From: Antedon mediterranea
Taxonomy: Eukaryota; Animalia; Echinodermata
Direction: 5' to 3'
Assembly: GCF_964355755.1 (NCBI RefSeq)
Contig: NC_092676.1
Coordinates: forward strand, 3,697,888-3,761,887
DNA length: 64,000 nt
Positions 1-45,578 of this stretch are shown in pieces. The notes under the pieces were generated by a model, which was given only the letters and a program-made list of their open reading frames with translations, had not been told where the DNA came from and ran no database searches. Numbering within the stretch: the stretch's first letter is position 1; each line of letters opens with the position of its first letter. Made by a program: the position numbers and the translations under genes.

Positions 1-330
1 AGATGGAAATGAGGTCTATATTAATCAGCCAATCAGAACGAACGAATTTGACGATTTGGATGGATATATAGAAAATGAGAATGAAATATACGTAGATGGA
101 AATGAGGTCAATATTAATCAGCAAAGCAGAGTGAACAAATTTGAAAATTTGGATGGATATATAGAAAATGAGAATGAAATATATGTAGATGGAAATAAGG
201 CTTATGTTAATCAGCCAATCAGAGAAAATGAATTTGAACATTTTGATTAATATATAGAAAATGAGAATGAAATATACATAGATGGAAATGAGGTCGATAT
301 ATTAATCAGCCAATCAGAGCGAACATTTTT
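1..330 (+). repeat. 3' end of a D-type Ig-receptor locus: 93-nt (31-aa) ENEIYVDG tail repeats, partial at window edge
   Basis: Units of YIENENEIYVDGNEVxINQxxRxNxFExL match the tail ORFs at 14042-14464 and 33670-33918; in-frame stop at 248-250. Confidence 0.8.
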
Positions 331-743
331 TAACATTTAACGTTTAATATTCAAAACTTTAAAAAGTTCCTTATTAAATTTACACGCTTACATTGGTTTT
401 ATTAATTACACAGTATGTCATGAAAACAATGCAATTGGTTAAAATGTTTACACTATGGGGTTACTACAAAATTTTATACACTAGCTACTGTATATCTATG
501 CCATACAAATATCGAAAATACAAGAAAAACAAAACTGTGTTATGGTTGATCGAGTTTGATTAGCTACCAGATAATGAGTAAAAACTACAGAGTTTTGAAT
601 GTAAATTGTAAAACTTTCGTTGTATGAGGAACAAGATGCATACTGTAGATGCTACAGTGTATTCTGCACATTCTACTATCGCTGGCTTCAACTACTTTTC
701 TCTACTCTACCTTTCTACATGATCAAACAACTTTGAAATCAAC

Positions 744-2372
744 ATGACTGGAGATTGTGATGTTTTCTTCCTGGTTGTATTGACTTTATTGTCTTCATCT
801 TCACTTGCTAATGTTGAGTTTGTTACTAAGCCACCATCAAATGTGACTGTCTATCCAGGTCAGAATGTTTCACTGCCTTGTGTTTTTGAGAATTTAATTC
901 TAAATCACCACATAGTAGAATGGAGTTATTGGCCAAGTTACGAGTATAAGGAGATTATTTCACATGACAGAAATATTTTGTTACCAAGTATTAATAACAT
1001 TGCTGAAAGTTACTCAATTCTAGGTGATGAAATGAATTTCACACTTTTTATCAAAATACCAAGTTCAATAGACTTTAAATCATCTTCTAGTATAAAAACT
1101 GATTATAGATGCTCTGTGTATGAGCTAATCAAAGATGTCCCTATTGAAATAGCAATTTCAACTGTCGTCATACCGAAATATACATTTCATTCTCCAGTGT
1201 GTGGAGCAATCATCAAAACTGTTGTCATGGGAGAAACATTATTATTAGGATGTTGGCCACCAGAGACAGATTATAATGTTACAACAATTTTAACTGTAAA
1301 CAAACAAGTTCTACCTACTACTTATTATAATGGGGGCATTGCTTACAACTTGACTGTAACAAAAGAGTACCATAATGCAGTGTTTGTATGTGAATCGAGA
1401 AGAAAAGAAACAAATGAGACCAGAAGTTGCTCTGTAGGCCCACTCACTGTCAACTACAAACCAGAGATTAACATCACACAGATATCACCACTGGAATACA
1501 TCTGTACTGCAGAGGCTAGACCACCTGTTGATACAACAGTCTGGATTGTGGAATCTAGTGTTCCAGAAGATCACTTTACTATTTCAAATAAGACTTTGAA
1601 ATTTATTAAATTGCCAAAAGTTGGTTCTGAAATAACATGTGAAGCAGGAAATCTTTTGGGAAAAGAATCCAAGTCAATGATCATTCCATTGTTGAACAAT
1701 AATGATGAAGAAAAAATCAAAATTTACATGATCATATTATGCGTTGTAATAACTATTAACATCATTGTTGCAATTGGCGTTTGCTACCTTAAATATAAAA
1801 AGAAACAAAATAATAACAATACTGATGATGACTATGATGATACCACTGAAAGGCAGGAGAGACAAGATGAAGATGAATATCAAATACCTGACAAAAGTAC
1901 CAGTCAACATTACCAATCATTAACATCAGAAACAATGGCTACTAAAAATGATACCACTTATGAAACTGCTTTCACAATTGACAAAGGTCAGAGTGCAAAG
2001 GTCATACAAGATACTTTACCATTCTTGACCTCTATTGATGTACAAAAGATAGAAACTGTATATGATACAACTTATGCTGAATGTGCTGTTAACAAAGAAG
2101 ATGGCACAAAATATGAAGTCATTCCTGATCAGAAGGTAGAAAAGACATCTGGTAAAGTTGATGTGAATAATCCACATGTAAGGAAACGACCTAAAGGACC
2201 TGAATGTGATGAACTTTATATTGAAATCATTGATGACAAAGAAGATATCACAAAACATGAAAGCTGTGAAAACACATCCACAACTAGTGCAGTTTATGTC
2301 AACAATCCATGTGTCAGGAAACAACAGCCTACAGGAACTATATGTGATGAACCTTTATATAGAAATCATTGA
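744..2372 (+). CDS. Single-ORF IgSF type I receptor G1 (SP-V-Ig-Ig-TM-A-type Tyr tail), 542 aa
   Basis: Signal peptide (FFLVVLTLLSSSSLA); V domain with LPC..EW..FTLFI..YRC; two more Cys-paired domains; TM IYMIILCVVITINIIVAIGVCY followed by a basic stretch; tail motifs YDD, YQI, YQSL, YET, YEVI, YVNN. A +1 insertion near 2352 shifts the last few codons. Confidence 0.9.
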   Translation: MTGDCDVFFLVVLTLLSSSSLANVEFVTKPPSNVTVYPGQNVSLPCVFENLILNHHIVEWSYWPSYEYKEIISHDRNILLPSINNIAESYSILGDEMNFTLFIKIPSSIDFKSSSSIKTDYRCSVYELIKDVPIEIAISTVVIPKYTFHSPVCGAIIKTVVMGETLLLGCWPPETDYNVTTILTVNKQVLPTTYYNGGIAYNLTVTKEYHNAVFVCESRRKETNETRSCSVGPLTVNYKPEINITQISPLEYICTAEARPPVDTTVWIVESSVPEDHFTISNKTLKFIKLPKVGSEITCEAGNLLGKESKSMIIPLLNNNDEEKIKIYMIILCVVITINIIVAIGVCYLKYKKKQNNNNTDDDYDDTTERQERQDEDEYQIPDKSTSQHYQSLTSETMATKNDTTYETAFTIDKGQSAKVIQDTLPFLTSIDVQKIETVYDTTYAECAVNKEDGTKYEVIPDQKVEKTSGKVDVNNPHVRKRPKGPECDELYIEIIDDKEDITKHESCENTSTTSAVYVNNPCVRKQQPTGTICDEPLYRNH

Positions 2373-3485
2373 TGACAAAGAGGATGGCACAAAATAGAGT
2401 TTATGTCAATAATTCTTAGAAATATTATTATACTACTTAATGAAGAATATCTTAAATTTGAATAGAAAATAATTAAACTTTCAGAAAAAATTGCTCTTTT
2501 TAAAAATTAAATTATTAATTATTTTTGTTAAATTGTATGTCATTAATAATTAATATTGTAAATATTTTTATCTTTTATAGTGTTAATGTACTGTACCAAT
2601 CGTTTTTTACTATAATTATATAGTAAAAGCTTTTAAAATCACAATTTCTAAAAACTAAATCATACTTTTGCTGTAATTTTCACACACATTAAATGAAAAT
2701 ATTAGAAATAAATTTAATACTAACATAAGTCACTAGAATATTAGTTCAGTATTGATGATATTTTTTATAAATGCTTTTTGTAACATACTAATACAAATAT
2801 ACTACTTGTATAAAATACTTAAAGATGTATTGTCCCCAAAAAACATGAAAAATGAAGATTAATTAAATCAGACATTGAATTAGAATTTTGTAGTTTTTAC
2901 AAAGTTAATCACTTCCATAGAAGGGGGGACAATATATATTTGAAGTGCATAAATTTCAAATAATTCTGTATTTTTTTATTTTTTATATTACAATTTTGTA
3001 ATACTTAGAATTAAATATTAACAATTTTTCTTACAAAGTATTATATTGAATAGTCTTATAGCACACCTAATTCCGCATCATCATGTATTGTATCCTATAC
3101 ATTTACCATATATTCCAACCCTTCCTATTAAACAGGAAATCTTTATAAAATTCAACCAAAAATAATCATGATTTTCTTATTTTTTTATAATAATATTCAC
3201 CGTTATATAGATTTCATAAACCAGTTTAGTTTTATTTCATAAAAATATTCTTAACAGTATTTCAAATACAGCATGGGATTTTGACATACAATAATTAAAT
3301 TTATCAGAGTTTATATGATGTGTACTGCCACAGAATATGAAATATAACATGCAAAAAAAAAAAAAAGAAATAAACTTTATATTTTAAAAATATTTTGCAT
3401 TTGTTTGGTTTCTATCATTGTTTTGTAAAAAACAGACAATAAGTTTGTTTACCTTTACAGAAAACTTAACCCTAGGGTCTACACT

Positions 3486-3782
3486 AATATAATATAATAA
3501 TATCCAGGATTTATATAACACCTAATGTAATGAAACCTCTAAGCGCTGAACATTATTACCCAAGTCATTTTTGGATCAAACATGTATGGAAACATACTTC
3601 CATAATGCAGCTAGTAATCAGCGCAAAGTTGTGTCTTGATCTAACCGGGTACCCATTTATACACCTGGGTGGAGAGAGGCAAACATAAGTAAAGTATCTT
3701 GCCTACAGATACAAGCAATGCGGAGCAACCTCGGTCTCACGATCAGTAGTCCAACGTCCAACAAACTGTGCCACACGCCCTC
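3486..3782 (-). mobile_element. tRNA-derived SINE with L2-like 3' tail (copy 1, B-box deleted)
   Basis: Minus strand reads GAGGGCGTGTGGCACAG (A-box-like), central CCTCTCTCCACCCAGGTGTATAAATGGGTACC and a CAGCGCTTAGAG..TATATAAAT..ATT-rich tail; the paralogue near 45760 retains GGTTCGAATCC. Confidence 0.7.
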
Positions 3783-4699
3783 ACAAAAAATTCTTCATCG
3801 TCTTAGACACTAGCAAACTTGCGCAAACTCTGGGTTTTCAAAGTATATTCACAATATCATAAAACCAAGGCAATTTAACAACAGGATGCTGAGCTCCGGA
3901 GATCAAAAGATTTATCTGTGGCTTCGACACGATCAGTTCCACCCTCCATTAGCGGACACCGCGCTCCCCAGCAAATATGAACAGTACTGTTAGTATTTGT
4001 TGCAGCCAGACATAAGATCAAAGCACTGAACATGAGTTCCTATCTTGGCAAGGTGAGCTCAGTGTTTTGCATGTGTATTGATATGGGTTTGTTAGTAGTC
4101 AAAGCTTGTGGTTGGACAATATTTTTTTTTTCATACTTCTTCAACATCTTTATTGATAGACTTTATCCAAGTCTTTAATTAAATTGTCTTTTTATGTTGG
4201 CGCTTGTAAAAATGTTCTCAATTGAATGATTCCAGCTAAAATATAGTTATGACACGCCATACATGCCAAAATGTTTTTCTTTCAAATCGACATCTAAACC
4301 CTGTATACCCTGTAGACTACTTTATTGTGTACATGGGTTTGGCCGGCTTTATTCACTCACCAACGTATTTACTCGCCGTTGGCTAGAGATTGTTTTTAGT
4401 GGAAAACCGGCAGTAGGCGGTCTTGTGATTTTTATGGTTGTGAGTACCAATCACAATTAGGTTGAAGTCTGTTCTCTAAGCTGAAGTTTAAACTTGTATG
4501 TGATCTGCAGATACTGTACCAACTAATCAGTACATGATACATAATTATCATATGAATATTCAATAGTTTGAAGTTGAAAATCAATATAAGATTATTGTGT
4601 TCAATAGTGTACACTTCTTTGTACATACTTTGAAATACAGAGGATGCTGTTTTACATAAAAGACCATGACTAGTCTTTACAAACTTTCTTTGTAAAAGA

Positions 4700-5790
4700 A
4701 AATATTGCTACTGTATATTAGAAATAACTATTTCAGCCTACCATGGAGTAATATGATAATAGTTAGTATACCTCCATGCTATTAAAACTCTTCAGACAAT
4801 AATAATGGAATAGAATGGCAGAGGATGAAAAAAAAAACATATTGCAGAGTGCAAGAGTGTAATTTCACTTTTCCTGCTCCAGTGCACAAAGAAATGTTAA
4901 TGCTATGGTTTCTGAACCTGATCAGCTCTCAGCCAATGAGTGAACAGCAGAGTATTACCAATACCAAAAAAAAAACCACAGGTACTTTTATTACTCAAAA
5001 CCTATCACAATAATCTCATGGTTAACTGAGTCTGATCAACTCTCAGCCAATGAGTAAACAGCAGAGGATTATCAATACTAAAAGAATTTTTTGTGTGTGT
5101 GTGTGTGTTATTTTTCACTGTAAACTTGTTGCACATCTCATTGAGACTGTGCCTTTGATTTAAAAGAGATACAATAAAAGTTCAGTTCAGGTACGAACTT
5201 ATCACAATGACCTCATGGTTGACTGAACAACTCTCAGCCAATGAGTGAACAGCAGAAAATTATCAATGTATTAGTTATTACTTCCATTATTTGTTTTCAC
5301 TAGTAGTACTCAATATAGTATTTGTTGGTTTGAAATCAATTATTTCCTTAACTTTCTATACAACAACTTTAAACCACCTGTTTATGAAACAGTCTGGATT
5401 GTGAAAAACAACAATACTCTAAAGTATTAACATTCAGTGAACCATCTGAGGTTGATCACCTGACAAGTGTAACATGCAAAGGGCAAAATGTTATTGGGAC
5501 GGCAATAAAAACATTAAGTATTCAAAAGAAATGTTAATATGTTATAAATGTAAAGATGACAACATTGGAATGCTCTACTAATTGTAAACCTACAATCATT
5601 ATAACAACGTCAGAAAAAAACAAATTATAACTACTAATTATGACGGATTATACATTGGACACAATATTAATGTAACAAAAGGTAAACACAATGCAATGTT
5701 TATTTGTAGTTCAAAGAAGAACATTTCTAAAATTTGTATGACGATTCCAAATCGCAAGATAACGACAACCGTTCCTGTAACACGTAATCA
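4700..5790 (+). pseudogene. D-type receptor remnant: promoter modules plus degraded Ig domains 3-4
   Basis: 5373-5785 aligns by eye with 32921-33373 (ccacctgtt.atgaaacagtctggattgtg, acatgcaaagg.caaaatgttattggg, actaattatgacggattatacattgga) with deletions and stops. Confidence 0.75.
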
Positions 5791-6092
5791 AAATTATATT
5801 ATTTTATATATGCTCAATACTATTAAAAAAAAACCTTTATAAATTTTCTTTGAAAATATTTTTAATATCCTGTTCTATGTTGGGTGTAGTTTTGTATTAA
5901 TGTGTATAGAGCTACAGTATTCTACTGGCAGATGCTTTTACTTATATATCGAAGTTTTAATCTCAATTTGAAATTTAGTATTATTTAGAAAAGTATCTTG
6001 CAGTAAAACGTGTATAATATTCAAATTTTTTTTTAAAAAGTTCCTCGAAATTACACGTACATTGATTTTCCTATGATTCAGGTGAACAGTAT

Positions 6093-6420
6093 GGGGAAGA
6101 TGGTATGAGGTTTTAAGAGAAAACAGAATATGTAAATTATGTCATAGGAATGAGATAGAAAATGAATATCACTTTCTGTTAATTTGTCCGTTCTATAATG
6201 AGTTACGTCACTTTATTTATTACCAGTTTTGTTTATAATTACTCTTCTGAAAGTAAGTTCATTAATTTAATGGCTTCCAGAAATATTACTTTAATTGGAA
6301 ATATGTCTAAATTTTGTGCATTTAAAAAAAGAAATAATTCATTTTGCATCTAATTTTTGTAAATAAAATGTACTTTGTGCTGTGTAAAAAAATGCCCTAC
6401 AGTCTGGGATAAAGAAGAAG
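6093..6420 (+). mobile_element. 5'-truncated LINE 3' end encoding a CCHC zinc knuckle; copies also at ~14872-15880 and ~49799-50168
   Basis: Translates RENRICKLCHRNEIENEYHFLLICPFYNELR and ends in a (AAG)n tail; absent at the equivalent sites ~415 and ~34120 (cagtatgtcatga). Confidence 0.7.
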
Positions 6421-7496
6421 TATCATGACAACATTGGAATTGTTTAAAACGTTTAAACTATAGTGTTAAGACATAATTTTATACACCAGCTACTGAATGT
6501 CTATGCCATACTGACATCGAAATATAAGAAAAACTGTGTTAACTGTTACTATAAAGTAATAAATCAATTGAATTAAGTTTAGGCAGAACACATAATTGTA
6601 ACACATCTGCTATGATAATATTCTATATGAAATAATGCTAAACATAAGGTCATACCTATAATAAAGCTATATATTATAAAACTAACAAACACCTAGGCCT
6701 ATACTAAAACTAATACATGATAGAAATAAATGTATTAGGGTAAAACATAGACTGAAATACACGGTCAAACATATATAAGTAAACAAACAAATGTAAATGG
6801 CCAACATAGTAAGAACAGAACTTTAAGGTTTAGAAATAGTGGAATGAAACAAATGTTATACAAGGCCAACACATAAAAAGTAGCATATAATGTGTTTATA
6901 ATAACTAGATTAAACTGATTCGTAAATGTAAATAGGTCTATTAATGTGTGTATGGGTGTGTATATTTGTAATGGATGTAAGGTCAAAAGAAAAAAGAAAC
7001 ATACAAATTGTGAGTACTGATTTGAAATATAATAAAAGAAACAGCTACTTTTTAATACATTTCTTAATATAAAGTAAATTTAAATGATAAATAGTCGTAC
7101 TTTTACTATAACTTGCAATAAACATAAAATGTACGTTTTTAGAGCATACTTTTACTCCATCGATTTTATGTACATGTATAGATATAGTGCCTTTTCAACT
7201 ACTATATTGAATTTTATTGTTTTATATTTTTACAAAAATGTATTTATGTTATATAATATATATTTGTAAAAGGAATGAATAAATGTGGGTGACCCCAACG
7301 AAAGAGAAAAAAAAACAGTTATGGTTGATCGAGTTTGATTTATTAGCTAACAGCCAATGAGTAAAAACTACAGAGTTTCAAATGTAAATTTTGAAACTTT
7401 CGTTGTATGAGGAACAAGATGCATACTGTAGATGCTACAGTGTATTCTGCACATTCTACTATCGCTGGCTTCAACTATTGATTCTTTACTTTCTAC

Positions 7497-8309
7497 ATGA
7501 TCAACAACTTTGAAACCAACATGACTGAAGATTGTGATAATGTTTTCTTCCTGGTTGTATTGACTTTATTGTCTTCTTCTTCACTTGCTAATGTTGAGTT
7601 TGTTACTAAGCCACCATCAAATGTGACTGTCTATCGAGGTCAGAGTGTTTCACTGCCTTGTGTTTTTAGGAATTTAATTCCAAATCACCATATAGTAGAA
7701 TGGACTTATTGGCCAAGTTATGAGGAGAATGAGATTATTTCACATGACAGAAATATTTTGTTACCAAGTATTAATAACATTGCTGAAAGGTACTCAATTC
7801 TAGGTGAGGGAATGAATTTTACAATTGCTATCAAAATACCAAGATTAATAGATTTTAAATTATCTTCTAGTATAAGAACTCATTATATATGCTCTGTGTT
7901 AGAACCAAGCAAAGATGTCATAGTAACAGCAACCTCAACTGTTATTATAAAGAAACAACCATTTAGTACTCTAAACAAAGATGAGGAAAACAGTAATAAC
8001 ATTTCAATTATCATCGTTGTAGTTATTGTTGGTTTTGGTATGATTGTTGTCCTCATGATTCTCTGTTTTTCCAGAAAAAAGAAAAGTCAAATAGAAAATA
8101 AAAAAAAAATGAACAAAAATAGTTCTCAGCCAAATACATTAACAACCAACAAACTTGTTTACGATTATGTAGCAGTCACTGAAATCGAGTTAGAAGATTA
8201 TCAGGAAGTGGAGAATGAATTTTACGTTGGCGGTGATATTGTTATCAATGCAAAAAGTAAAACAGAATATGAAAATGTAAACCAATACAACTTAAAGGTC
8301 AGAGACTAA
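7497..8309 (+). CDS. Single-V-domain IgSF receptor G2 (SP-V-TM-shortened B-type tail); start may be 7521
   Basis: V domain followed directly by stalk and TM; tail YDYV, YQEV, YVG, YENV. The homologous rest of the B tail (to ~8677) is out of frame. Confidence 0.85.
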   Translation: MINNFETNMTEDCDNVFFLVVLTLLSSSSLANVEFVTKPPSNVTVYRGQSVSLPCVFRNLIPNHHIVEWTYWPSYEENEIISHDRNILLPSINNIAERYSILGEGMNFTIAIKIPRLIDFKLSSSIRTHYICSVLEPSKDVIVTATSTVIIKKQPFSTLNKDEENSNNISIIIVVVIVGFGMIVVLMILCFSRKKKSQIENKKKMNKNSSQPNTLTTNKLVYDYVAVTEIELEDYQEVENEFYVGGDIVINAKSKTEYENVNQYNLKVRD

Positions 8310-10398: not shown

Positions 10399-12132
10399 AT
10401 GTATAAATACAGTGTTTGCTTCCTTGTGATGTGGATTGCATTGGTTTCTTCTTTTTGTGAGTTTGTTACTAAGCCACCATCAACAGTGACTGTCTATCCA
10501 GGTCAGAATGTTTCACTGCCTTGTGTTTTTGATAAATGTTTACATGAACATCAATACACAGTAGAATGGAGTTATTGGCCAGTCACGTTTGAATCTGCAG
10601 AGATTATTATTATTTCAAATGACAAAAATCTTTTGTTACCAAGTTTTGATCAAATTGCTGAAAGTTACTCAATTCAAGGTTATCGAACGAATTTCACACT
10701 TTTCATCAAAATACCAAGTTTAATTAATTTTAGATTTTCAAGTGTTAGCAGTCAGTATAGATGTTCTGTGTTTGACCCAAGAAACAGTGTCCCTGTTAAA
10801 ATAGCAACTTCAACTGTCATTATGCAGAAACCAACATTTCATTCTCCAGTGTGTAGAAAAATCAAGACAACTGTTGTCATTGGAGAAACATTATCATTAA
10901 GATGGATTTTACTCACCAATAACAGATTATGATGTAACAACAATTTTAACTGTGAACAAACAAGTTCTACCTACAATTATTGCTTACAACTTGACTGTGT
11001 AACAAAAGAGTACCATAATGCAGTGTTTGTATGTGAATCAAGAAGAAAAGAAACAAATGAGACAAGAAGTTGCTCTGTTGGCCCACTCACGGTCAACTAT
11101 AAACCAGAGATTAACATCACACAGATATCACCACTGGAATACATCTGTACTGCAGAGGCTAGACCACCTGTTGATACAACAGTCTGGATTGTGGAATCTA
11201 GTGTTCCAGAAGATCACTTTACTATTTCAAATAAGACTTTGAAATTTACTAAATTGCCAAAAGTTGGTTCTGAAATAACATGTGAAGCAGGCAATCTTTT
11301 GGGAGAAGATTCCAAGTCAATGATCATTCCATTGTTGAACAATAATGATGAAGAAAAAATAAGAATTTACATGATCATATTATGCATTGTTATAACTATT
11401 AACATCATTGTTGCAATTGGCGTTTGCTACCGTAAATATAAAAAGAAACAAAATAATAACATTACTGATGATGACTATGATGATACCACTGAAAGGCAGG
11501 AGAGACAAGATGAAGATGAATATCAAATACCTGACAAAAGTACCAGTCAACATTACCAATCATTAAAATTAGAAAAAGTTGCTACTAATAAAGATACTAC
11601 TTATGAAACTACTTTCACAATTGACAAAGGTCAGAGTGCAAGTGTCATGCCAGATATATACATGAGCTCTATTGATGGTGGACCAAAGATAGAAACTGTG
11701 TATGATACAGCTTATGCTGAATGTGCTGTTAACGAAAAAGATGGCACAAAATATGAAGTCATTCCTGATAAGAATGTAGAAAAGACATCGGGCGAAGTTT
11801 ATGTGAATAATCCACGTGAAAGGAAGCAACAACCTAAAGGACCTGAATGTAATGAACCACATATAGAAATTGTTGTTGACAAACAAGACATTTTTACAAA
11901 ACATGCTGATGTTGAAAACACATCCACACCTAGTGCAGTTTATGTGAATAATCCACATGTCAGGAAACAACAACCTAAAGGACCTGTATGTGATGAACCA
12001 CAAAAAGAAATTGTTGATGACAAACAAGACATCACAAAACATGTTGATGTTGAAAACACTTCCACATCCAGTTCTATTTATGTCAATAATCCGCATGTTA
12101 AAATACAGCCATCTACAAACATTCAGAAATAG
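10399..12132 (+). pseudogene. A-type IgSF receptor G3 with frameshifts in Ig domain 2
   Basis: MYKYSVCF signal peptide and V domain; indels at ~10905-11000 give a stop at 10932; the downstream ORF 11023-12132 encodes the rest, with three YVNNP motifs. Confidence 0.85.
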
Positions 12133-13722: not shown

Positions 13723-14464
13723 ATGATGCATTCTGGTAATATTTACCTACTGATTGTATTGACTTTATTATCTTTGTCTTCATCATATGATTCAAAGTTT
13801 GTTACTAGGCCATCATCAACATTAATTGTTTTTCAAGGTCAAATTCTTTCTCAATACTAATAATAACACTACTAATTTTGATTATTGTACAGAAGTAATC
13901 TGTTTTATTATTATTATAGTAATTGTCTGTTTATATACACAAAAACAAAGAAAGTTAAATCAAAAAATGAAACTACACTGTACAACCAAACCTTCACAAC
14001 AGGAAGACAAGGAGGAGGATTCAATGGTTTTAAACTAAGCAATGGGAAACATGGACAAGTATCAGGAAACAGAAAATGAAATATACGTAGATGGAAATGA
14101 GGTTGATATTAATCAGTCAATCAGAGCAAACGAATTTGAAGATTTGGATGGATATATAGAAAATGAGAATGAAATATACGTAGATGGAAATGAGGTTGAT
14201 ATTAATCAGCCAATCAGAACGAACGAATTTGAAGTTTTGAATGAATATATAGAAAATGAGAATGAAATATACATAGATGGAAATGAGGTTGATATTAATC
14301 AGCCAATCAGAGTGAACAAATTTGAAGATTTGAAAGGATATATAGAAAATGAGAATGAAATATATGTAGATGGAAATGAGGTCAATATTAATCAGCCAAT
14401 CAGAGTGAACAAATTTGAAGACTTGAATGAATATATAGAAAATGAAATATATCAAGTAACTTAA
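13723..14464 (+). pseudogene. D-type receptor remnant G4: signal peptide joined to TM/tail, Ig domains deleted
   Basis: MMHSGNIYLLIVLTLLSLSSSYDSKFVTRPSSTLIVFQGQ..* then an out-of-frame TM (IIIIVIVCLYTQK), DSMVLN-TAA and a 140-aa open repeat ORF. Confidence 0.75.
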
Positions 14465-16185: not shown

Positions 16186-16995
16186 ATGATCAACAACTTT
16201 GAAATCAACATGACTGGAGATTGTGATAATGTTTTCTTCCTGGTTGTATTGACTTTATTGTCTTCTTCTTCACTTGCTAATGTTGAGTTTGTTACTAAGC
16301 CACCATCAACAGTGACTGTCTATCCAGGTCAGAATGTTTCACTGCCTTGTGTTTTTAGGAATTTAACTCCAACTCACCACATAGTAGAATGGAGTTATTG
16401 GCCAAGTTATGACATCAAGTACAATATTTCAAAGGACAGAACTCTTTTGTTACCAAGTATTGATAATATTGCTGAAAGTTACTCAATTCTAGGTGATGGA
16501 ATGAATTTCACAATTGTTATCAAAATACCAAGTTTATTAGACTTTAAATTATCTTCTAGTATAAGAACTTATTATATATGCTCTGTGTTAGAACCAAGCA
16601 AAGGTGTCATAATAACAGCAACCTCAACTGTTATTATAAAGATACAACCATTTAGTACTCTAAACAAAGATGAGGAAAACAGTAATAACTTTTCAATTAT
16701 TACCGTTGTAGTTATTGTTGGATTTGGTATGATTGTTGTCCTCATGATTCTCTGTTTTTCCAGAAAAAAGAAAAGTCAAATAGAAAATGAAAAACAGAAA
16801 AAAAATAGTTCTCAGCAAAATACATTAACAACCAATAAACTTATTTACGATTACGCCACAGTCACTGAAATCGAGTTAGAAGATTATCAGGAAGTGGAGA
16901 ATGAATTTTACATTGGCGGTGATATTGTTATCAATGCAGAAAGTAAAACAGAATATGAAAATGTAAACCAATACAACTTAAAGGTCAGAGACTAA
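16186..16995 (+). CDS. Single-V-domain IgSF receptor G5, paralogue of G2; start may be 16210
   Basis: Same architecture and same tail truncation (YNLKVRD*) as G2. Confidence 0.85.
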   Translation: MINNFEINMTGDCDNVFFLVVLTLLSSSSLANVEFVTKPPSTVTVYPGQNVSLPCVFRNLTPTHHIVEWSYWPSYDIKYNISKDRTLLLPSIDNIAESYSILGDGMNFTIVIKIPSLLDFKLSSSIRTYYICSVLEPSKGVIITATSTVIIKIQPFSTLNKDEENSNNFSIITVVVIVGFGMIVVLMILCFSRKKKSQIENEKQKKNSSQQNTLTTNKLIYDYATVTEIELEDYQEVENEFYIGGDIVINAESKTEYENVNQYNLKVRD

Positions 16996-19096: not shown

Positions 19097-21274
19097 ATGT
19101 ATAAATACAGTGTTTGCTTCCTTGTGATGTGGATTGCATTGGTTTCTTCTTTTTGTGAGTTTGTTACTATGCCACCATCAACAGTGAATGTATATCCAGG
19201 TCAGAATGAATGTTTCACTGCCTTGTGTTTTTGGTACCGGTAAATGTTTACATGAACATCAATACACAGTAAAATGGAGTTATTGGCCAGTCAAGTTTGA
19301 AGCTACAGAGATTATAACTATTTCAAATGACAAAAATCTTTTGTTACTAAGTTTTGATAACATTGCTGAAAGTTACTCAATTCAAGGTTATTTCAAGAAT
19401 TTCACACTTTTCATCAAAATACCAAGTTTAATTAATTTTAGATCTTCCAGTGTTAGCAGTCAGTATAGATGTTCTGTGTTTGAGCCAAATGGTAAAGGTG
19501 TCCCTGTTAAAACAGCAACTTCAACTGTCATTATACAGAAACCAAAATTTAGTAATCCAATTTGTGGAATAATCATCACTCTTGTTGTCATTGGACAAAC
19601 ATTATCATTAGAATGTTACTCACCAGTAAGAGACTATGATGTAACAACAATTTTAACTGTAAACAAACAAGTTCTACCTACTTATTATAATGGGGGCATT
19701 GCTTACAACTTGACTGTAACAAAAGAGTACCATAATGCAGTGTTTGTATGTGAATCGAGAAGAAAAGAAACAAATGAGACCAGAAGTTGCTCTGTTGGCC
19801 CACTCACTGTCAACTATAAACCAGAGATTAACATCACACAGATATCACCACTGGAATACATCTGTACTGCAGAGGCTAGACCACCTGTTGATACAACAGT
19901 CTGGATTGTGGAATCTAGTGTTCCAGAAGATCACTTTACTATTTCAAATAAGACTTTGAAATTTATTAAATTGCCAAAAGTTGGTTCTGAAATAACATGT
20001 GAAGCAGGAAATCTTTTGGGAAAAGAATCCAAGTCAATGATCATTCCATTGTTGAACAATAATGATGAAGACAAAATCAGAATTTACATGATCATATTAT
20101 GCATTGTTATAACTAATAACATCATTGTTGCAATTGGCGTTTGCTACCGTAAACATAAAAAGAAACAAAATAATAACATTACTGATGATGACTATGATGA
20201 TACCACTGTTCCTGAAAGGCAAGAAAGACAAGATGAAGATGAAAAATATCAAATAACTGACAAAAGCACCAGTCAACATTACCAATCATTAACATCAGAA
20301 AGATTGGCTACTAAATATGATACCACTTATGAAACTACTCTCACAATTGACAAAGGTCAGAGTGCAAGGGTTATGCCAGATGCTTTTCCATTCATGACCT
20401 CTATTGATGGTGGACAAAAGATAGAAACTGTATATGATACAGCTTATGCTGAATGTGCTGTTAACGAAAAAGATGACAAAAAATATGAAGTCATTCCTGA
20501 TCAGAATGTAGAAAAGACATCTGATGAAGTTTATGTGAATAATCCACATGTCAGGAAACAACAACCTAAAGGACCTGAATGTGATGAACCACAAATAGAA
20601 ATTGTTGTTGACAAACAAGACATCACAAAACATGCTGATGTTGAAAACACTTCCACATCCAGTTCTGTATATGTTAACAATCCACATGTCAGGAAACAAC
20701 AACCTAAAGGACCTGAATGTTATGAACCACAAATAGAAATTGTTGTTGACAAACAAGACATCACAAAACATGCTGATGTTGAAAACACTTCCACATCCAG
20801 TTCTGTATGTTAACAATCCACATGTCAGGAAACAACAACCTAAAGGTCCTGAATGTGATGAACCACAAATAAAAATTGTTGTTGACAAACAAGACATCAC
20901 AAAACATGCTGATGTTGAAAACACTTCCATATCCAGTTCTGTATATGTTAACAATCCACATGTCAGGAAACAACAACCTAAAGGACCTGAATGTAATGAA
21001 CCACAAATAGAAATTGTTGTTGACAAACAAGACATCACAAAACATGCTGATGTTGAAAACACTTCCACATCCAGTTCTGTTTATGTCAATAATCCACATG
21101 TCAGGAAGCAACAACCTAAAGGATCCTGTATGTGATGAACCACAAAAAGAAATTGTTGTTGACAAACAAGACATCACAAAACATGCTGATGTTGAAAATA
21201 CTTCCACATCCAGTTCTATTTATGTCAATAATCCGCATGTTAGGAAACAGCCATCTACAAACATTCAGAAATAG
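19097..21274 (+). pseudogene. A-type IgSF receptor G6 with a 4-nt duplication frameshift and expanded tail repeats
   Basis: cagaatgaatgttt at ~19203 (aatg duplicated) breaks the V domain start; further frameshifts at ~20807 and ~21123. Confidence 0.85.
20530..21250 (+). repeat. 138-nt (46-aa) coding tandem repeat, about 5 units plus a partial unit
   Basis: Unit VYVNNPHVRKQQPKGPECDEPQIEIVVDKQDITKHADVENTSTSSS; period 138 (aatccacatg at 20541 and 20679). Confidence 0.9.
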
Positions 21275-22933
21275 TGAAAATGGCCATTATTGGACACCCC
21301 ACCACATTGACAGCTGTTTATTGAGACAGCTCCTACACAGGGATGTTGTAATTGCTTTTATACTGGCATTAATTAGTTAATGGATAATATCTATATTTTA
21401 AGTAGAAAAAATGTATGCTCTCAAAAAAAAACTTTTGTTACTTGGTAGAATAATATCTTGTTAAGTAAATAACATGCTGTAAATATGCATTTTCTATTTG
21501 ATGTTCATTAGAATAGTAAATTATTAATTTACTATTCATTGATAATTATGCTTTATAAAGTTTTTAATCCTTAATGTTTTAATCCTTATAATGTTTTTAA
21601 TCCTTATAACATTAACCATGTGATGCCTTTTGGACCAATCATGTTCTTTTATCTACAAAGGCTTGTAATATTACTATATATCACTAGAATAAGTGCATCA
21701 AGTAATTTTGCTGTAAACTAATTTGTTAAATTTAATAAATAAAAGGTTTGCACAGTATATCATAAATGAGCATTTTATTATATAAACTTGTCTGTGTCTT
21801 ACAAAACAATACAAAAGATGTTTTTGTTTGTGCATAAAAGTGAGTATAGCTGTTACAACAGCATTCCTTCCTTCCTGTATGAACAACATTTAAAAACTTT
21901 GAACAAAATACAGACCTGTCAACCACAGAGTTAGAACAATTTAAGTAAGTTATCAAACAAAAAGCATTACAAATTTACACACACAAAATTGGAGAAAAGT
22001 ATGATAAAATAGGGTGAAAATCATATTAGATTGGAAGAATTATCGATTTGTTGGTGACTCAAAATATTTCATGCTTTGTAATATTACTTTTGTGAGGTGG
22101 TTTCCCGATTAATCGTACGATCAAAACGGTACTGGGTATGATCAACTAGCATTCGTGTTCCCACCTAATCATCCACTCATAGAAGTACTGATGAAGATAT
22201 CAATCTGTGGCGACAATAGAATGGACCCGAGACCTGGCTATCTTCGAATTTTAAAGAATAGAAAGTTTTGAAAAATTGTGTTACATGGTAGAAATGTACG
22301 TAGGCTAGTATGATGTGTATGTTTATTGAATGAAATTAAAATTGAAAAAGCCAGCAAACATGAGATCTTTCTTCACATAAAAGTAATCACTATGCTGATA
22401 TTAAAAGATTTGAACAAGGTAACATCTTATAAAAGATTGAGATATAGAGGGCACTTTAATAAACATACTAAAAGGTACATCTATATATAAATTTACGTAA
22501 GGGCAAAATTCGGTAAATCGCGCCTTACTTTTAGAATTTTTACTCGATGGTATGTAAAGTTGGTTCGTACTTTCGGTACTGATTTTAACCACCTGATGTA
22601 ACCCTGTTTACTAATTAAATTAAGTTAGATAATTAGTTATTGACGATTAAAACGAATTTAGGTTCAAAGATTTGCCCCAAATAGGGGTGTTTTCCGATCG
22701 TGGTATACACTGTCTAATGGATGTCCATCTTGAAAAATACCCGCCACAAAAATGCGAGGAGGCTTCGCATTTTTCTATCTCCTCCTACGATAATTGTTTT
22801 TAATAGCTGAAAACCGGTTGAACAGTTTGAGTACAGCATCATAATGTTGAAGACAGGCCGATTTTCTTTAAAAAATACTATTTTGATACATTTAATATAC
22901 GTTTTTACAAATGTATTGATTTGTGATGAATGG

Positions 22934-32139: not shown

Positions 32140-33666
32140 ATGACTGGATATTGTGATAATATTTACTTCTTGCTTGCACTGACTTTAGTAATGTTTTCAT
32201 CGTCACTTGCTGTTGAGTTCAATTCTAAGCCACCATCAACGGTATCTGTCTATCCAGGTCAGAATGTTTCACTGTCTTGTGTTTTTAGGAATTTAATTCC
32301 CAATCACCACATAGTAGAATGGAGTTATTGGTCAAGTTACGAGAATAACCAGATTATTTCAAATGACAGAAATATTTTGTTACCAAGTATTGATAACATT
32401 GCTAAAAGTTACTCAATTGTAGGTGATGGAATGAATTTCACACTTTTTATCAAAATACCAAGTATAACAGATTTTGGAATTTCTGGTGTACATACACAGT
32501 ATATATGTTCTGTGTTAGAACCAAGCAAGATCGGTTTCGTTGTCCCTGTTACAGCAACTTCAACTGTCATTATAAAGAAACATACATTTAATTCTCCAAT
32601 ATGTGGAGGAATACACAAAACTGTTGTCATTGGAGAAACATTATTATTCGGATGCTTCCCACCAGTGACAAACTATGATGTAACAACAACTTTAAAATTG
32701 AACAAACAAGTTTTACCTATTTATAATTGGTTAATCAATGCTTACATGTTGACTGTAACAAAAGAAGACCATGATGCAGTGTTTGTATGTGAATCAAGAA
32801 GAAAAGAAACAAATGAGACCAGAAGTTGCTCTGTTGGCCCACTCACTGTCAACTACAAACCAGAGATTAACATCACACAAATATCACCAATGGAATATCA
32901 CTGTACTACAGAGGCTAGACCACCTGTTAATGAAACAGTCTGGATTGTGGAAGAAAGCAATACCTTAAATTACAGTATTAACATTTCAAATAACGTATTA
33001 ACATTCAGTGAACCACCTGAAGTTGATCAGCTAACAAGTGTAACATGCAAAGGACAAAATGTTATTGGGACGGCAACAAAAACATTAAGTGTACAAAAGA
33101 AATGTCAATTTGTTGAACCGGATTGTAACTCTCAATATGTTATAAATGTAAATACGACAACATTGGAATGTACTACTGATTGTAAACCTGCAATTATCAT
33201 AACAACGCCAGAAATAAAACAAATTATAACTACTAATTATGACGGATTATACATTGGACACAATATTATTGTAACAAAAGGTGAACACAATGCAACGTTT
33301 ATTTGTAGTTCAAGGAAGAACATTTGTAACACGAGTCCAATACGTGAGATAACGACAACCGTTCTTGTAACACGCAGCAGCGCAGATATTGATCAATACA
33401 CGCAGTTTAGTATACAAGAACTAATAACCACTGTAAATAACATGTTAATCAAAAACGAGGATGAAAAACAAGATAATAATAGTAACTGGATGAATATAAT
33501 AATTTTGGTTATTGCAGTAAGTTTGGTATGCTGTTTTATCCTTATTCTTATAATACTTGTTTGTTTATATACACAAAATAAAAAGAAAGTTAAATCAAAA
33601 AATGAAACTACGACCAAACCTTCACAACAGGAAGACAAGAAGGAGGATTCAATGGTTTTAAACTAA
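32140..33666 (+). CDS. D-type IgSF receptor G7 (SP-V-Ig-Ig-Ig-stalk-TM-short tail), 508 aa
   Basis: The fourth domain (TLECTT..NIIVTKGEHNATFICSSRK) resembles domain 2; TM IIILVIAVSLVCCFILILIILVCL. Confidence 0.88.
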   Translation: MTGYCDNIYFLLALTLVMFSSSLAVEFNSKPPSTVSVYPGQNVSLSCVFRNLIPNHHIVEWSYWSSYENNQIISNDRNILLPSIDNIAKSYSIVGDGMNFTLFIKIPSITDFGISGVHTQYICSVLEPSKIGFVVPVTATSTVIIKKHTFNSPICGGIHKTVVIGETLLFGCFPPVTNYDVTTTLKLNKQVLPIYNWLINAYMLTVTKEDHDAVFVCESRRKETNETRSCSVGPLTVNYKPEINITQISPMEYHCTTEARPPVNETVWIVEESNTLNYSINISNNVLTFSEPPEVDQLTSVTCKGQNVIGTATKTLSVQKKCQFVEPDCNSQYVINVNTTTLECTTDCKPAIIITTPEIKQIITTNYDGLYIGHNIIVTKGEHNATFICSSRKNICNTSPIREITTTVLVTRSSADIDQYTQFSIQELITTVNNMLIKNEDEKQDNNSNWMNIIILVIAVSLVCCFILILIILVCLYTQNKKKVKSKNETTTKPSQQEDKKEDSMVLN

Positions 33667-33669
33667 GCA

Positions 33670-33918
33670 ATGGGAAACATGGACAAGTATCAGGAAACAG
33701 AAAATGAAATATACGTAGATGGAAATGAGGTTGATATTAATCAGCCAATCAGAGTGAACAAATTTGAAGATTTGGATGGATATATAGAAAATGAGAATGA
33801 AATATACGTAGATGGAAATGAGGTCTATATTAATCAGTCTATCAGAGCAAACAAATTTGAACATTTGGATAGATATATAGAAAATGAGAATGAAATATAC
33901 GAAGGAATCGGAAAATGA
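33670..33918 (+). other. In-frame ENEIY-repeat tail ORF directly after the G7 stop codon
   Basis: aac TAA gca ATG gga; same frame as G7; two 93-nt units. Confidence 0.7.
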
Positions 33919-38446: not shown

Positions 38447-40098
38447 ATGTATAAATACAGTGTTTGCTTCCTGGTGTTGTGGATTTCATTGGTTTCAAAG
38501 ATATTTTGTAATGTTGGGTTTGTTACTAGGCCACCATCAACAGTGACTGTCTATCCAGATCAGAATGTTTCACTGCCTTGTGTTTTTAATAATTTAATTA
38601 CAAATCACTACATAGTAGAATGGACTAGTTCGCAGGGTAACATAGAACATCCAGATATTATTTCAAATGACAGAAATATTTTGTTACCAAGTACTGATAA
38701 CATTACTGAAAGTTACTCAATTCTAGGTGATGGCATGAATTTCACACTTTTTATCAAAATACCAAGTTTAATAATAGATTTTGGATCAGCTTCTAGTATC
38801 AGCACTCTTTATGCATGTTCTGTGTTTGACGCAAAAGAGAAAGATGTCCCTGTTATAACATCAACTTCAATTGTCATTATACAACCGATATTTAGAGATC
38901 CAGTTTGTTTAAAAATCAACAATACTGTTGTCATTGGAGAAACATTATCATTAGGATGTTACTCATCAGAGACATATTATGAAGTTAAAACAATTTTAAA
39001 AGTGAACAAACAAGTTTTACATACTAATTATTATGTTGGGTCCTTCAATGTTTACAACTTGACAGTAACAAAGGAACACCATAATGCAGTGTTTGTATGT
39101 GAATCAAGAAGAAAAGAAACAAATGAGACCAGAAGTTGCTCTGTTGGCCCACTCACTGTCGGCCCACTCACTGTCAACTACAAACCAGAGATTAACATCA
39201 CACAAATATCACCACTAGCATTCCACTGTACTGCAGAGGCTAGACCACCTGTTAATGAAACAGTCTGGATTATAGAATCTAGTGTTCCAAAAGATCACTT
39301 TACTATTTTATATGGGATTTTGATATTTACTGAATTGCCAAAAGTTGTTTTTGAAATAACATGTGAAGCAGAAAATCTTGTGGGAGAAGATTCCAAGTCA
39401 ATGATCATTCCATTGTTGAAAAATAATTATGAAGAAAAAATAAGAATTTACTTGATCACATTATGCGTTGTTATAACTATTAACATCCTTTTTGCAATTG
39501 TACTTTGCTACCGTAAATATAAAAAGAAACAAAATAATAACATTACTGATGATGACTATGGTGATACCACTGAAAGGCAAGAAAGACAAAATGAAGATGA
39601 ATATCAAATACCTGACAAAAGTACCAGTCAACATTACCAATCATTAACATCAGAAACAATGACTGCCAATAATGATACCACTGAAAGGCAAGAAAGACAA
39701 GATGAAGATGAATATCAAATACCTGACAAAAGTACCAGTCAACATTACCAATCATTAAAATTAGAAAAAGTTGCTACTAATAACGATACTACTTATGAAC
39801 TACTTTCACAATTGACAAAGGTCAGAGTGCAAGGGTCATGCCAGATATATACATGAGCTCTATTGATGGTGGACAAAAGATAGAAACTGTGTATGATACA
39901 GCTTACGCTGAATGTGCTGTTAACAGAGAAGATGGCACAAAACATGAAGTAATTCCTGATCAGAATGAAGAAAACACAGCTGGCGAAGTTTATGTGAATA
40001 ATCCACGTGTCAGGAAACAACAAGGACCTGTGATGAACTTTATATTGAAATCATTGATGAAAAATAGGATGGCACAAAACAGAGTGAAGAATATCTAA
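38447..40098 (+). CDS. A-type IgSF receptor G9; ectodomain and TM intact, tail frameshifted (stop at 39856)
   Basis: MYKYSVCF leader; in-frame 15-nt duplication GPLTVGPLTV; duplicated DTTERQERQ..YQIPDKSTSQHYQSL; a single A is lost at ~39798 relative to G3. Confidence 0.8.
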
Positions 40099-41183
40099 AA
40101 TTTGAATAGAAAATAATTAAACTTTCAGAAACAGATTTGCTCTTTTTTGTATATAATGCTAATACTAATACTGTGTAATAGCTTTTTAATTTGCTCATTT
40201 TTATATAATAAAGTCTGTAATAGTTTTTTAAAATCACAATTGTTTAAAATAAATCATACTTTTGCTGTAATTTCCACACACATTAAATGAAAATATTAGA
40301 AATAAATTTAATACTAAAATATTAAGTCAGTGGAATATTAGTGCAGTATTGATGCTAGTATAAATGCTTTTGTAACATAATATACAAATATACTACTTGT
40401 ATAAAATGAAAAAAAGAAGATTAATTAAATCAGACATTGAATAGGAATTTTGTAGTTTTTACAAAGTTAATCACTTCCATAGAAGGGGGGACAATATATA
40501 TTTGAAGTGCATAAATTGCAAATAATTCTGTGTTCTGTTCTTTTTTATTACAATTTTGTAATAGAATTTAATATTAACAATTTTTCTTACAAAGTATTAT
40601 ATTGGATAGTCTTACAGCACACCTATTTCCGCATCATCATGTATTGTATCCTATACATTTACCATATATTCCAACCCTTCCTATTTAACAGGAAATCTTT
40701 AAAATTCAACCAAAAATGATCATGATTTTCTTATTTTTTTATAATATTCACCATTATATAGATTTCATAAACCAGTTTAGTTTTATTTCATAAAAATATT
40801 CTTAACAGTATTTCAAATACAGCATGGGATTTTGACATACAATAATTAAATTTATCAGAGTTTATATGATGTGTACTGCCACAGAATATGAAATAACATA
40901 CTAAAAAAAAAAAAAAAAAAAACTTTATATTTTGAAAATATTTTGCATTTGTTTGGTTTCTATCATTGTTTTGTAAAAAATAGACAATAAGTTTGTTTAC
41001 CTTTACAGAAAAACTTAACCCTAGAGTCTACACTAATATAATATAATAATATCCAGGATTTATATAGCACCTAATGTAATGAAACCTCTAAGCGCTGAAC
41101 ATTCAATCAATGACGTGCTCAGGATAAGACGTGTATAGCGAGCGCTCCTCATTTGACTACAATTTACACGGCGTGTATGCATC

Positions 41184-41873
41184 ATGGCCACCAAACCCAA
41201 GACTCGCTCTCGCCCAGCCGATATTGAAAGTGCTTGTTCCAACCCTGTGGACTTTAACAATTTTGTACATGCTTCCCTAAAATCATTATTAGATGGGCAG
41301 GCAAAAATTAAAGAGGATTTGAACCAAGCTATTGGATTTAACTCGGACAGAATCGCAGCACTCGAAGAAAACGATATTATCAAGGCTAACAAGATTGGTC
41401 AACTCGAACAAACGGTTGATAAACTATCATCTACGGTTGCGAAGCTCGAACTAGAGGCCAACAAATCCGAACGCTTCAGCCGACGTAACAACGTTCGAAT
41501 TGTGGGACTTAAAGAAGAATCAGGTGAGGATTGTATTGTCTTGGCCAGGAACATTCTAATAGATAACTTTGAATTTAGTGAAATACCAACGATAGAGCGT
41601 GCACATCGAGTCGGTCCTGTACTGCCGGTGAGGCCCCGACACATTATAATTAAACTACTTAGTTATAACTCTAAAGTTCAAGTCATGAAACAGAAGAATA
41701 TTGCCTTACAAGATAAACAGTTTTACGTGATAGATGATCTGACCTTAGTGGATTATAAAGAAAAGAAGAAATGGAAATTTCAAGTTAAAGCTTTATATGA
41801 CAATGGAACTAAACTTAAATTCTCTGCTGGTAAATGGCGAACTTCTACGGGGACTCCCTATATATTCAAGTAA
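41184..41873 (+). CDS. LINE ORF1 (coiled coil + RRM, L1/Tnp_22-like)
   Basis: Heptad region followed by SRRNNVRIVGLKE, IERAHRVG, PRHIIIKL and IDDLT motifs. Confidence 0.85.
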   Translation: MATKPKTRSRPADIESACSNPVDFNNFVHASLKSLLDGQAKIKEDLNQAIGFNSDRIAALEENDIIKANKIGQLEQTVDKLSSTVAKLELEANKSERFSRRNNVRIVGLKEESGEDCIVLARNILIDNFEFSEIPTIERAHRVGPVLPVRPRHIIIKLLSYNSKVQVMKQKNIALQDKQFYVIDDLTLVDYKEKKKWKFQVKALYDNGTKLKFSAGKWRTSTGTPYIFK

Positions 41874-42405
41874 CTTTTACGGTGTTTTGAGGAACTGGGA
41901 TATGAATAGTTTCTTTTTCTCTGCCTTCTTTCATTTTGTAATGTCAGTATATTTAACCTGGCTTTGCTTGTTTAAATTCCAAGCATGTCCGCTACGTACC
42001 ATTATGCAAATTATACCTTTGCATACCCGGTTGCATACCTAATGAATTATTCTCCGTTTTATACACGGGGAGTGCAACGCTTACGCTACCTATGTATTAG
42101 TAATACGGCAGCACTAAACAGAATTGTTTTATGTTTAATTATTGTTATATTTAGTTTTTTATTTTATTATATTATTGTTAACTTTTACCTAATGTTTAAA
42201 TTATCTATGATACCTATAAATAATGTGCCAATCCAACTCTACAACTGATGTGAAATTTAACCCTTTTGTGGCATACGAGAACATGAATATTAATGAAAAT
42301 GTTGATCCACACTCTCAATTTTATGCTAGTTAAAATGAATCTAATTATTTTGATCCAGAAACATTCTCAGAGAATTTCTCTAAGCATAACAATGATAAAA
42401 ATATT

Positions 42406-45255: not shown

Positions 45256-45578
45256 ATTAATTAACTAGTTATATTCTAGGTATCAGTTTTTTATTGTTTT
45301 CATATTCCGTTATGGTAATTACTTTATTCCTATATACCATTTACTATTATTTACTAATTTGATTTTAGTTACTTTTTGTTTTGTTCAGGCACTTTCAACA
45401 CAAGCTTTTGCTTTTTAGAAATTGTGCCTCCTTCATAATATTGTTTTATTCATGTTAAAGATGAGAAAAAAAAATTGTATTGTTTTAACTATCTTTCTTC
45501 TCGTCATGAATTTTGTATTATATTATTTATTTTGTATATTATGAAGGAAATAAATGTTACTATGAAATGAAATGAAAA

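Follow-up and report, generated by a model that had tools for sequence, protein, structure and literature searches.

How do tandem receptor genes come to carry the upstream DNA of one neighbor and the cytoplasmic tail of another, and which linkages in such an array are original? The question is raised by 64,000 nucleotides of the crinoid Antedon mediterranea (RefSeq assembly GCF_964355755.1, contig NC_092676.1, forward-strand positions 3,697,888 to 3,761,887), the whole stretch analyzed here and hereafter called the window, which contained 11 copies or remnants of one receptor gene family, all on the + strand. A first-pass annotation made from the letters alone described two of these genes, G1 and G11, as reciprocal chimeras of the B-type and A-type genes of the array. 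We confirmed that G1 is a mosaic with a B-type front and an A-type back. With a probability of about 0.62, we read G1 as an unequal-crossover hybrid of a B and an A gene, and G11 as likely not its reciprocal product but the original last gene of the array, with the boundary of the repeat unit lying within a gene.

In every intact gene, an unbroken, intron-free open reading frame (ORF) encoded a leader, three immunoglobulin (Ig)-like domains (D1 to D3), a transmembrane segment (TM) and a tyrosine-rich tail, in window DNA that had a GC content of 26-33% outside transposons. Paralogues were 78-99% alike across D1-D2 and likewise from D1 to the start of D3, and the array came down to three upstream blocks and four back halves. 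Intergenic links were constant: a C tail led into a B upstream block, a B tail into an A upstream block, and an A tail into a spacer with a C gene or its remnant. The order in the window was C0 tail and G1; C remnant, G2 and G3; G4, G5 and G6; G7, G8 and G9; and C remnant, G10 and G11 (Table 1), with units of about 9-18 kb. Recent duplicates were G2-G3 with G5-G6 and G8-G9 with G10-G11 (spacers and coding sequence 98%). As assembled, G3, G6 and G9, which combine an A upstream block with an A tail, were each frameshifted, at different places; the odd genes G1 (744-2372) and G11 (54057-55553) were intact. G2 and G5, having no D2-D3, were left out of the maximum chi-square (max-chi) analysis, segment identities, approximately unbiased (AU) tests and diagnostic-site counts; the AU tests were also without G7, and G4 entered none of them. 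Global alignments of unrelated flanks shrink to a few bases and were taken solely as "no alignment".

G1 is a single open frame of 542 amino acids (aa) in which the junction between types is in register. Scored against G8 and G10 as B references and G3, G6 and G9 as A references, its upstream DNA and leader (560-809) carried the B state at 72 of 75 diagnostic sites (one A, two other), in line with the original observation that upstream DNA and MTGDC leader match those of G8 (92.8% for the upstream block; 95-98% to G8 and G10 for the leader). At the end of D3 (1536-1680) the count was 0 B to 48 A, and in the stalk and TM (1681-1790) it was 0 B to 45 A with two other; the reference genes, each scored against the others, kept a single type at both ends. 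The max-chi statistic for G1 was 183.8, its best break separating 92 B and 2 A sites from 8 B and 120 A sites, a value reached by 0 of 2000 permutations. Alignment within the window and grouping tests per segment gave the same picture. Positions 1-1664 aligned to 33717-35379 (G7 tail, G8 upstream block and G8 front) and 2279-3554 to 39975-41103 (end of the G9 tail and its flank), and G1 grouped with B genes over upstream block and leader (G1+A rejected by AU test, p 9e-12) and with A genes at the end of D3 (G1+B rejected, p 2e-5).

The back of G1 had been matched to G9 from D3 through TM, tail and 3' flank. It was A-type throughout, and the flank (2820-3554) was indeed close to that of G9 (96.2%), but this was the sole G9-specific part: D3 and TM (1331-1800) were 98.1% identical to G6, 97.0% to G3 and 89.9% to G9, and the tail 92.5%, 91.5% and 89.9%, respectively. 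The 3' flanks of G3 and G6 were not alignable with that of G1. G1 and G6 shared a run of 34 polymorphic sites at 1282-1427 (Bonferroni p 0.014). The switch from B to A could be narrowed to 810-1282 and no further: D1 and early D2 show 78-90% identity to every paralogue, and the likeness to G6 begins at 1282. Within that zone, an A majority at diagnostic sites (9 B, 20 A) was dropped as a signal, as the C gene G7 had a similar count (5 B, 21 A) and the majority therefore reflects changes specific to G8 and G10, G2 and G5 not being among the B references. To the left of G1 lay a C tail and an upstream block as before G8, and to the right a spacer as after G9, colinear as far as the next B gene; G1 therefore occupies the usual place of a B gene plus an A gene. 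Position 3554 is the empty site of a long interspersed nuclear element (LINE) that interrupts only the G9 copy of this spacer.

The mosaic likely exists as a gene in the organism. Contigs from three runs of one sample, likely the source sample, matched the zone private to G1 exactly (1036-1248 twice, 1036-1310 once), and 1066-1280 had no 31-mer in common with the rest of the window. The longest exact match between G1 and a B gene in the ectodomain was 71 bp, located after the switch, and B and A genes matched over at most 63 bp among the pairs tested, so that no long identity was available to drive a mis-join, which is unlikely. There is accordingly only a slim chance that the assembler joined a real B gene to a real A gene. 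Counting toward such a chimera, and so against a genuine G1, none of the contigs listed in these runs spanned G1 or bridged its front to its back, the three supporting runs came from one sample that is probably the assembly's own, and a fourth run from a different sample gave no piece over 1036-1310. G1 also shared 31-mers with paralogues over 1281-1717, including the 71 bp identical to G8 and G10 at 1437. Letters private to G1 had matching contig depth at 1720 in three of three same-sample runs, at 1789 in one of three and at 1436 in none of four; contigs drop minority variants, which makes the lack of support at 1436 weak evidence. On the other side, the likeness to G6 starts at 1282, ahead of the 71-bp stretch, private letters in the middle and back half were present in contigs, both flanks were 90-97% identical to others in the window without being a copy of any, and the frame was intact. 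Contig depth over 1036-1310 was 85 in run X1 and 55 in run X2, and over the unique back half of G11 it was 32 and 12; these depths were not taken as copy numbers, and more G1-like copies outside the window are conceivable.

Hybrid genes formed by unequal crossover are textbook knowledge for receptor clusters. G1 has the corresponding makeup, standing among tandem same-strand paralogues with a shared middle, its 5' flank and front of one type and its back and 3' flank of another, in an in-register open frame. Because the ORFs are intron-free and D1-D2 are so alike, an in-register crossover within these near-identical Ig domains of two tandem genes would keep the frame while relinking upstream DNA and tail. 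The claim that a B gene was fused to the next A gene thus held as to a B/A crossover hybrid, which mosaic and flanks support. A B gene crossing with the next A gene would imply a deletion of 2.9-4.0 kb, and with the previous A gene a duplication; both leave the same structure and are indistinguishable from one haplotype. We think it highly improbable that the linkage in G1 is itself ancestral, with the B or A genes being the hybrids, or that long gene conversion produced it without a change in copy number. Apart from G1, no A-tailed gene in the window is both intact and full-length, the D1 and early D2 of G1 are as distinct as those of any paralogue, and polarity is likewise left undecided for chicken BG genes (PMC4046983). 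An ancestral G1 requires, however, that the block of C gene and B upstream DNA was already doubled, and conversion would have to extend across >1 kb of tail and flank that are not homologous.

G11 proved to be something other than the mirror image of G1. Its A-type front was as first described, with the upstream DNA 98.1% and the MYKY leader 100% identical to those of G9, and its ORF was intact. Its D3 and tail had been called B-like, and the end of D3 did group with G8 and G10 by AU test, but the relationship was distant. Diagnostic sites were 27 B, 16 A and 5 other at the end of D3 (48 to 0 in true B genes) and 13 B, 20 A and 14 other in stalk and TM (47 to 0-1 in true B genes). The back half was 70% identical to B genes in nucleotides, compared with 88-98% among B genes themselves, and alignment to B DNA was confined to the final motif (88% over 67 bp) and a 55-bp scrap of flank. 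The synonymous divergence (dS) of its D3 from that of G8, 0.58, is comparable to the 0.47-0.62 between A and B, so the back half forms a fourth lineage, of about the same age as the divergence of A and B. TM and tail were 30% identical in amino acids to G8 and 31% to the Anneissia protein P0003, tail scores placed G11 about equally far from G8 (158) and Anneissia (161-169), and the unrooted tail tree put it with Anneissia proteins, apart from G2, G5, G8 and G10 (support 100). Exact contigs covered 54939-55405 in run X1, and a contig of another organism matched 54939-55196 at 249 of 258 bases (9 differences). Judged by this divergence, the back half of G11 is an old lineage and not a swapped-in B copy.

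The proposal that G1 and G11 are the two products of one B × A crossover, of the Lepore/anti-Lepore type, is therefore scarcely credible. It draws on the B front and A back of G1 set beside the A front of G11 and a D3 end that groups with B, but the back half of G11 is too diverged, which refutes the proposal unless a near-identical B donor lies outside the window. No alignment was obtained between the 3' flank of G11 and the flanks of G8 and G2, which leaves no B flank behind G11, and the switch at 54862-54869, within D3 and equivalent to about 1545 in G1 in the max-chi analysis, differs from that of G1 at 1282 or earlier, although later conversion could blur breakpoints. A single crossover moreover leaves its two products on different chromatids.

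The duplicate formed by G8-G9 and G10-G11 (91-98%) ends at 39276/54868, at the conserved start of D3. The simplest account is a repeat unit that starts inside a gene. Long ago, a gene with an A tail would have crossed over with one of the G11 type, creating a unit of A tail, spacer, C gene, B gene, A upstream block, D1 and D2. Multiplied, this unit would leave G3, G6 and G9 as inner hybrids and G11 as a parent, the pattern of FCGR2A-2C-2B, with the front of the last unit joined to the unique downstream back half as G11. A separate crossover would make G1, with D2-D3 coming from the G6 lineage either in that event or through later conversion. Rather unlikely, in our estimate, is that G1 arose as proposed while G11 is derived too, a G9-like A gene having been fused by deletion to the back of a lost downstream fourth gene type, so that A upstream plus A tail is ancestral. 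That combination occurs three times (G3, G6 and G9) and the G11 linkage once, and it must be old, given that the A upstream blocks of G3 and G6 are 88.5% alike to that of G9. This course needs an extra unseen donor and an extra event, however, and G3, G6 and G9 are all frameshifted while G11 is intact; the recent duplicate also stops right at the G11 switch.

Several points weigh against a hybrid G1 and a parental G11. The body of G1 is G6-like and its 3' flank G9-like, so two events are needed. The polarity of G11 rests on parsimony, and an A upstream block with an A tail is the commoner link. Short conversion tracts were significant after correction in 0 of 45 pairs in D1 and 1 of 28 in D1-D3, and a mapped patchwork is accordingly not claimed. 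The array was read within the window, with its left neighborhood outside view, and although no family remnant was found in the 8.4 kb after G11 (55.6-64 kb), the array itself has gaps of up to 11 kb, and a further gene could therefore lie beyond G11.

As to consequences, the first-pass annotation held that promoter, specificity and output are being reshuffled, and relinking does hold for the sequence blocks. Treating the upstream block as a promoter is an assumption, helped by the fact that only ~400-540 bp separate the C repeats from the B start; G1 would then place an A tail under B-type control. Run X5, guessed to be RNA, also covered upstream and downstream non-coding DNA and was not used for expression. 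The family likely consists of cell-surface recognition receptors, immune or self/non-self, to judge by sequence, in which the outer V domain would diversify and the tyrosine tails would recruit SH2 proteins. The ratio of nonsynonymous to synonymous divergence (dN/dS) was 1.19 in D1 (27 of 36 pairs >1), 0.58 in D2 (3 of 21) and 0.55 in D3 (3 of 28), and G9 and G11, 98% alike upstream, were 85% alike in D1 (dN/dS 1.70). Counting against a firm reading of these ratios, the pairs are non-independent and include broken genes, and the estimates are pairwise with no site model (G6 left out of D1, G3 of D2 and G4 of all three domains). Window genes clustered apart from outgroups in the D1 and D2 trees (support 97 and 100), while the A tail matched outgroup protein P0004 (46% over 65 aa) and B-family tails matched Anneissia tails; ectodomains would therefore be homogenized and tails ancient.

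Tails carried 6-14 tyrosines per gene, and only one in G7. In a motif comparison with no chance control, there was one match each in G8, G10 and G2 to an immunoreceptor tyrosine-based inhibitory motif, matches resembling the related switch motif in G1 and G3 and also in G2 and G5, YVN repeats in G1 and G3, and a single match resembling the activation motif, ending at the frameshift of G9. A charged TM residue was absent in 10 of 10 TMs. The AlphaFold model of G1 had three beta-sheet domains (mean predicted local distance difference test score 80.6, predicted template modeling score 0.57), with the TM within ~15 residues of D3. V-set matches stayed under the Pfam cut-off, and in a profile comparison D1 matched antibody V domains, D3 nectin/Robo domains. 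A doubtful extension would give crinoids an immune receptor system of their own, intron-free and germline-combinatorial, with a diversifying V domain, four ancient tails and three upstream control blocks relinked in frame, and with selection keeping particular links, as might be suggested because the odd genes G1 and G11 are intact and the three standard A genes frameshifted. If true, this would be an echinoderm counterpart of the vertebrate paired receptors, independently arisen and tunable by haplotype.

Other copies in the array were broken or truncated in several ways. G2 and G5 keep a single Ig domain, D1, which runs on in frame into stalk, TM and a B tail; a frameshift common to both leaves a tail of ~80 aa. 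The frameshift product of G10 (50497-51444) would be 315 aa long and might be secreted, as it would keep the leader and all three Ig domains and lose the TM; that of G3 would be leader, D1 and part of D2. G7 and G4 have the same stop codon, followed by in-frame tyrosine repeats of ~31 codons that resemble B-family tail motifs (33666-33900, 14040-14445, 1-338). At the end of A-type tails stands a repeat of 46 codons, present in different copy numbers in G1, G3, G6 and G9 (20500-21260, 11780-12100, 2150-2390); in G9 the start of the tail is also duplicated, as are 15 bp where D2 meets D3. The LINE in the G9 spacer retains an open 229-aa ORF1 and a 935-aa endonuclease/reverse transcriptase ORF2, with a target duplication of at most 3 bases. 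A DIRS-like element on the - strand (27475-31059) had reverse transcriptase and N-terminal tyrosine-recombinase matches and inverted ends 96% identical over 183 bp, and beside it lay broken LINE-like ORFs (24498-27474). A ~62-bp tandem repeat occupied 46655-48123 within the G9-G10 spacer, and elements resembling miniature inverted-repeat transposable elements lay at 14969-15652 (inverted ends 96.7% over 120 bp) and 62169-62572 (79% palindrome over 405 bp).

Table 1. Receptor genes, gene segments and the spacer LINE of the Antedon mediterranea window (positions counted from its first nucleotide; percentages are identities).
Feature	Position	Strand	Remarks
G0, C-type (G7-like) gene: end of tyrosine-repeat tail, cut by window start	1..338	+	87-91% to 14066-14445 and 33694-33900; read in frame
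G1, B-type upstream block (assumed promoter)	339..743	+	92.8% to that of G8, 90-94% to those of G2/G5/G10, 42-48% to A-type blocks
G1, leader, MTGDC type (signal peptide by eye)	744..809	+	95-98% to G8/G10, 56% to A-type leaders
G1, D1 (V-type Ig) and first half of D2: crossover zone, type not assignable	810..1281	+	78-90% to all paralogues
G1, second half of D2, D3, stalk, TM: A-type, nearest G6	1282..1784	+	98.1% to G6; TM = residues 329-347
G1, cytoplasmic tail, A-type, 195 aa, 12 Tyr	1785..2372	+	Tail scores: G3/G6 730-734, outgroup P0004 118, B tails and G11 39-43
A-type 3' flank and spacer, colinear with spacer between G9 and G10; decayed C gene at 5370-5830	2373..6534	+	90-97.5%
G2, B-type, single Ig domain; frameshift-shortened tail	7524..8309	+	
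G3, A-type; frameshift and stop in D2	10399..12132	+	
G4, C-type remnant with internal deletion	13723..14445	+	
G5, B-type, single Ig domain; recent duplicate of G2	16210..16995	+	7314-12098 vs 16006-20825 92.8%; spacer 98.4%
G6, A-type; frameshifts in D1 and tail repeats	19097..21300	+	
G7, C-type; 508 aa, extra Ig-like part, 37-aa tail; in-frame tyrosine repeats after stop	32140..33900	+	
G8, B-type, intact, 577 aa	34437..36170	+	
G9, A-type; tail frameshift near 39797	38447..40082	+	
LINE in G9 copy of spacer, 4.5 kb	41104..45575	+	Endonuclease and reverse transcriptase ORF 42448-45255; flanks join at G1 3554
G10, B-type; frameshift after D3	50497..52204	+	98.2% to G8
G11 front: A-type upstream block, MYKY leader, D1-D2, start of D3	53189..54863	+	Upstream 98.1% to G9, D1 85.1%, start of D2 93.5%; 75 A and 0 B sites
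G11 back: end of D3, TM and tail (149 aa, 10 Tyr) of a separate lineage, distantly related to B	54864..55553	+	

We evaluated how widely the family occurs. Neither G1 nor G11 was present in the protein collection searched. A database search with G1 gave four best matches from 5858 candidates, of which three were uncharacterized proteins of Anneissia japonica (47-49%), and a profile search gave one further homologue (5 of 6716). The only named homologues, LOC117108902, LOC117108957, LOC117115572 and LOC117115573 of Anneissia japonica (47-49%), share the architecture described here and have a B/G11-like tail end; their D1-D2 form a separate clade, and D3 is not B-like though the tails are. They have no recorded function, and two pairs lie on equal-sized contigs, which suggests clusters. 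A metagenome scan with residues of G1 from 1230-1709 gave 596 pattern matches and no confirmed one, and shorter homologues numbered 0 among 26 candidates in a search that covered only 30-68 residues, forms over 1010 aa not being searched. By language-model features, the look-alikes were CD22/Siglec, nectin and fasciclin-3 proteins, with G11 nearest to CD22/Siglec-like proteins (0.95). Siglecs have an essential sialic-acid-binding arginine on the F strand of the V domain; membership of that family was rejected, as 13 of 13 D1 sequences had an F-strand cysteine followed by Ser-Val (x-x-C-S-V) and the arginine was missing. In titles and abstract openings of the literature, we found no account of this receptor family.

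In organization, the array is close to chicken BG genes. These are tandem same-strand Ig-V membrane genes (PMC4046983) whose 5' (promoter) and 3' (tail) parts each fall into two groups around an ungrouped middle, and their hybrids are ascribed to unequal crossover or deletion. The same source gives BG genes many exons, one V domain, coiled-coil-type repeat tails and a promoter type tied to expression, whereas the crinoid genes have unbroken ORFs, three Ig domains and four or more types of back half. The human FCGR2A-FCGR2C-FCGR2B cluster (PMC6563257) is the precedent for taking G11 as parent and G3, G6 and G9 as hybrids: the two outer genes cross over, a hybrid arises between them, the intervening genes are duplicated along with it, and the parents remain at the ends. 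Its state before the duplication is documented in other primates and its modules are ~80 kb, while for the crinoid array that state is inferred from one haplotype. For G1, the model is the SIGLEC14/SIGLEC5 fusion allele (PMC4042635), from genes with conversion-homogenized first two Ig domains and different tails, in which one tail comes under the promoter of the neighbor. The crinoid array, compared here by sequence only, differs in having no charged TM residue, and no opposing signaling is known for it.

Among invertebrates, the Hydractinia Alr cluster (bioRxiv 10.1101/2022.03.04.482883) is similar in encoding V-I-I Ig membrane proteins with tyrosine motifs, domain-level shuffling and a D1 that is the most variable. 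By the same source, Alr shuffles exons, has a fibronectin-like spacer and averages 24% identity, compared with ectodomain identities of 66-80% here. Membership of Alr was rejected, as no fibronectin-III-like spacer was present (the TM of G1 lies ~15 residues past D3) and the ORF was unbroken from leader to tail. With paired Ig-like receptors (KIR, LILR and CD33-related Siglecs), the array shares homogenized ectodomains combined with long-diverged tails. The relinking process is thus already known from chicken BG and SIGLEC14/5, and it is the crinoid receptor family that seems undescribed. The value lies in that family, whose single-ORF Ig receptors, clustered in a crinoid, bear the marks of recognition genes (a fast D1, ancient tails, and broken or truncated copies) and supply concrete candidates for the receptors by which echinoderms would recognize self/non-self or pathogens, in a 64-kb locus suited to tests of promoter-tail relinking.

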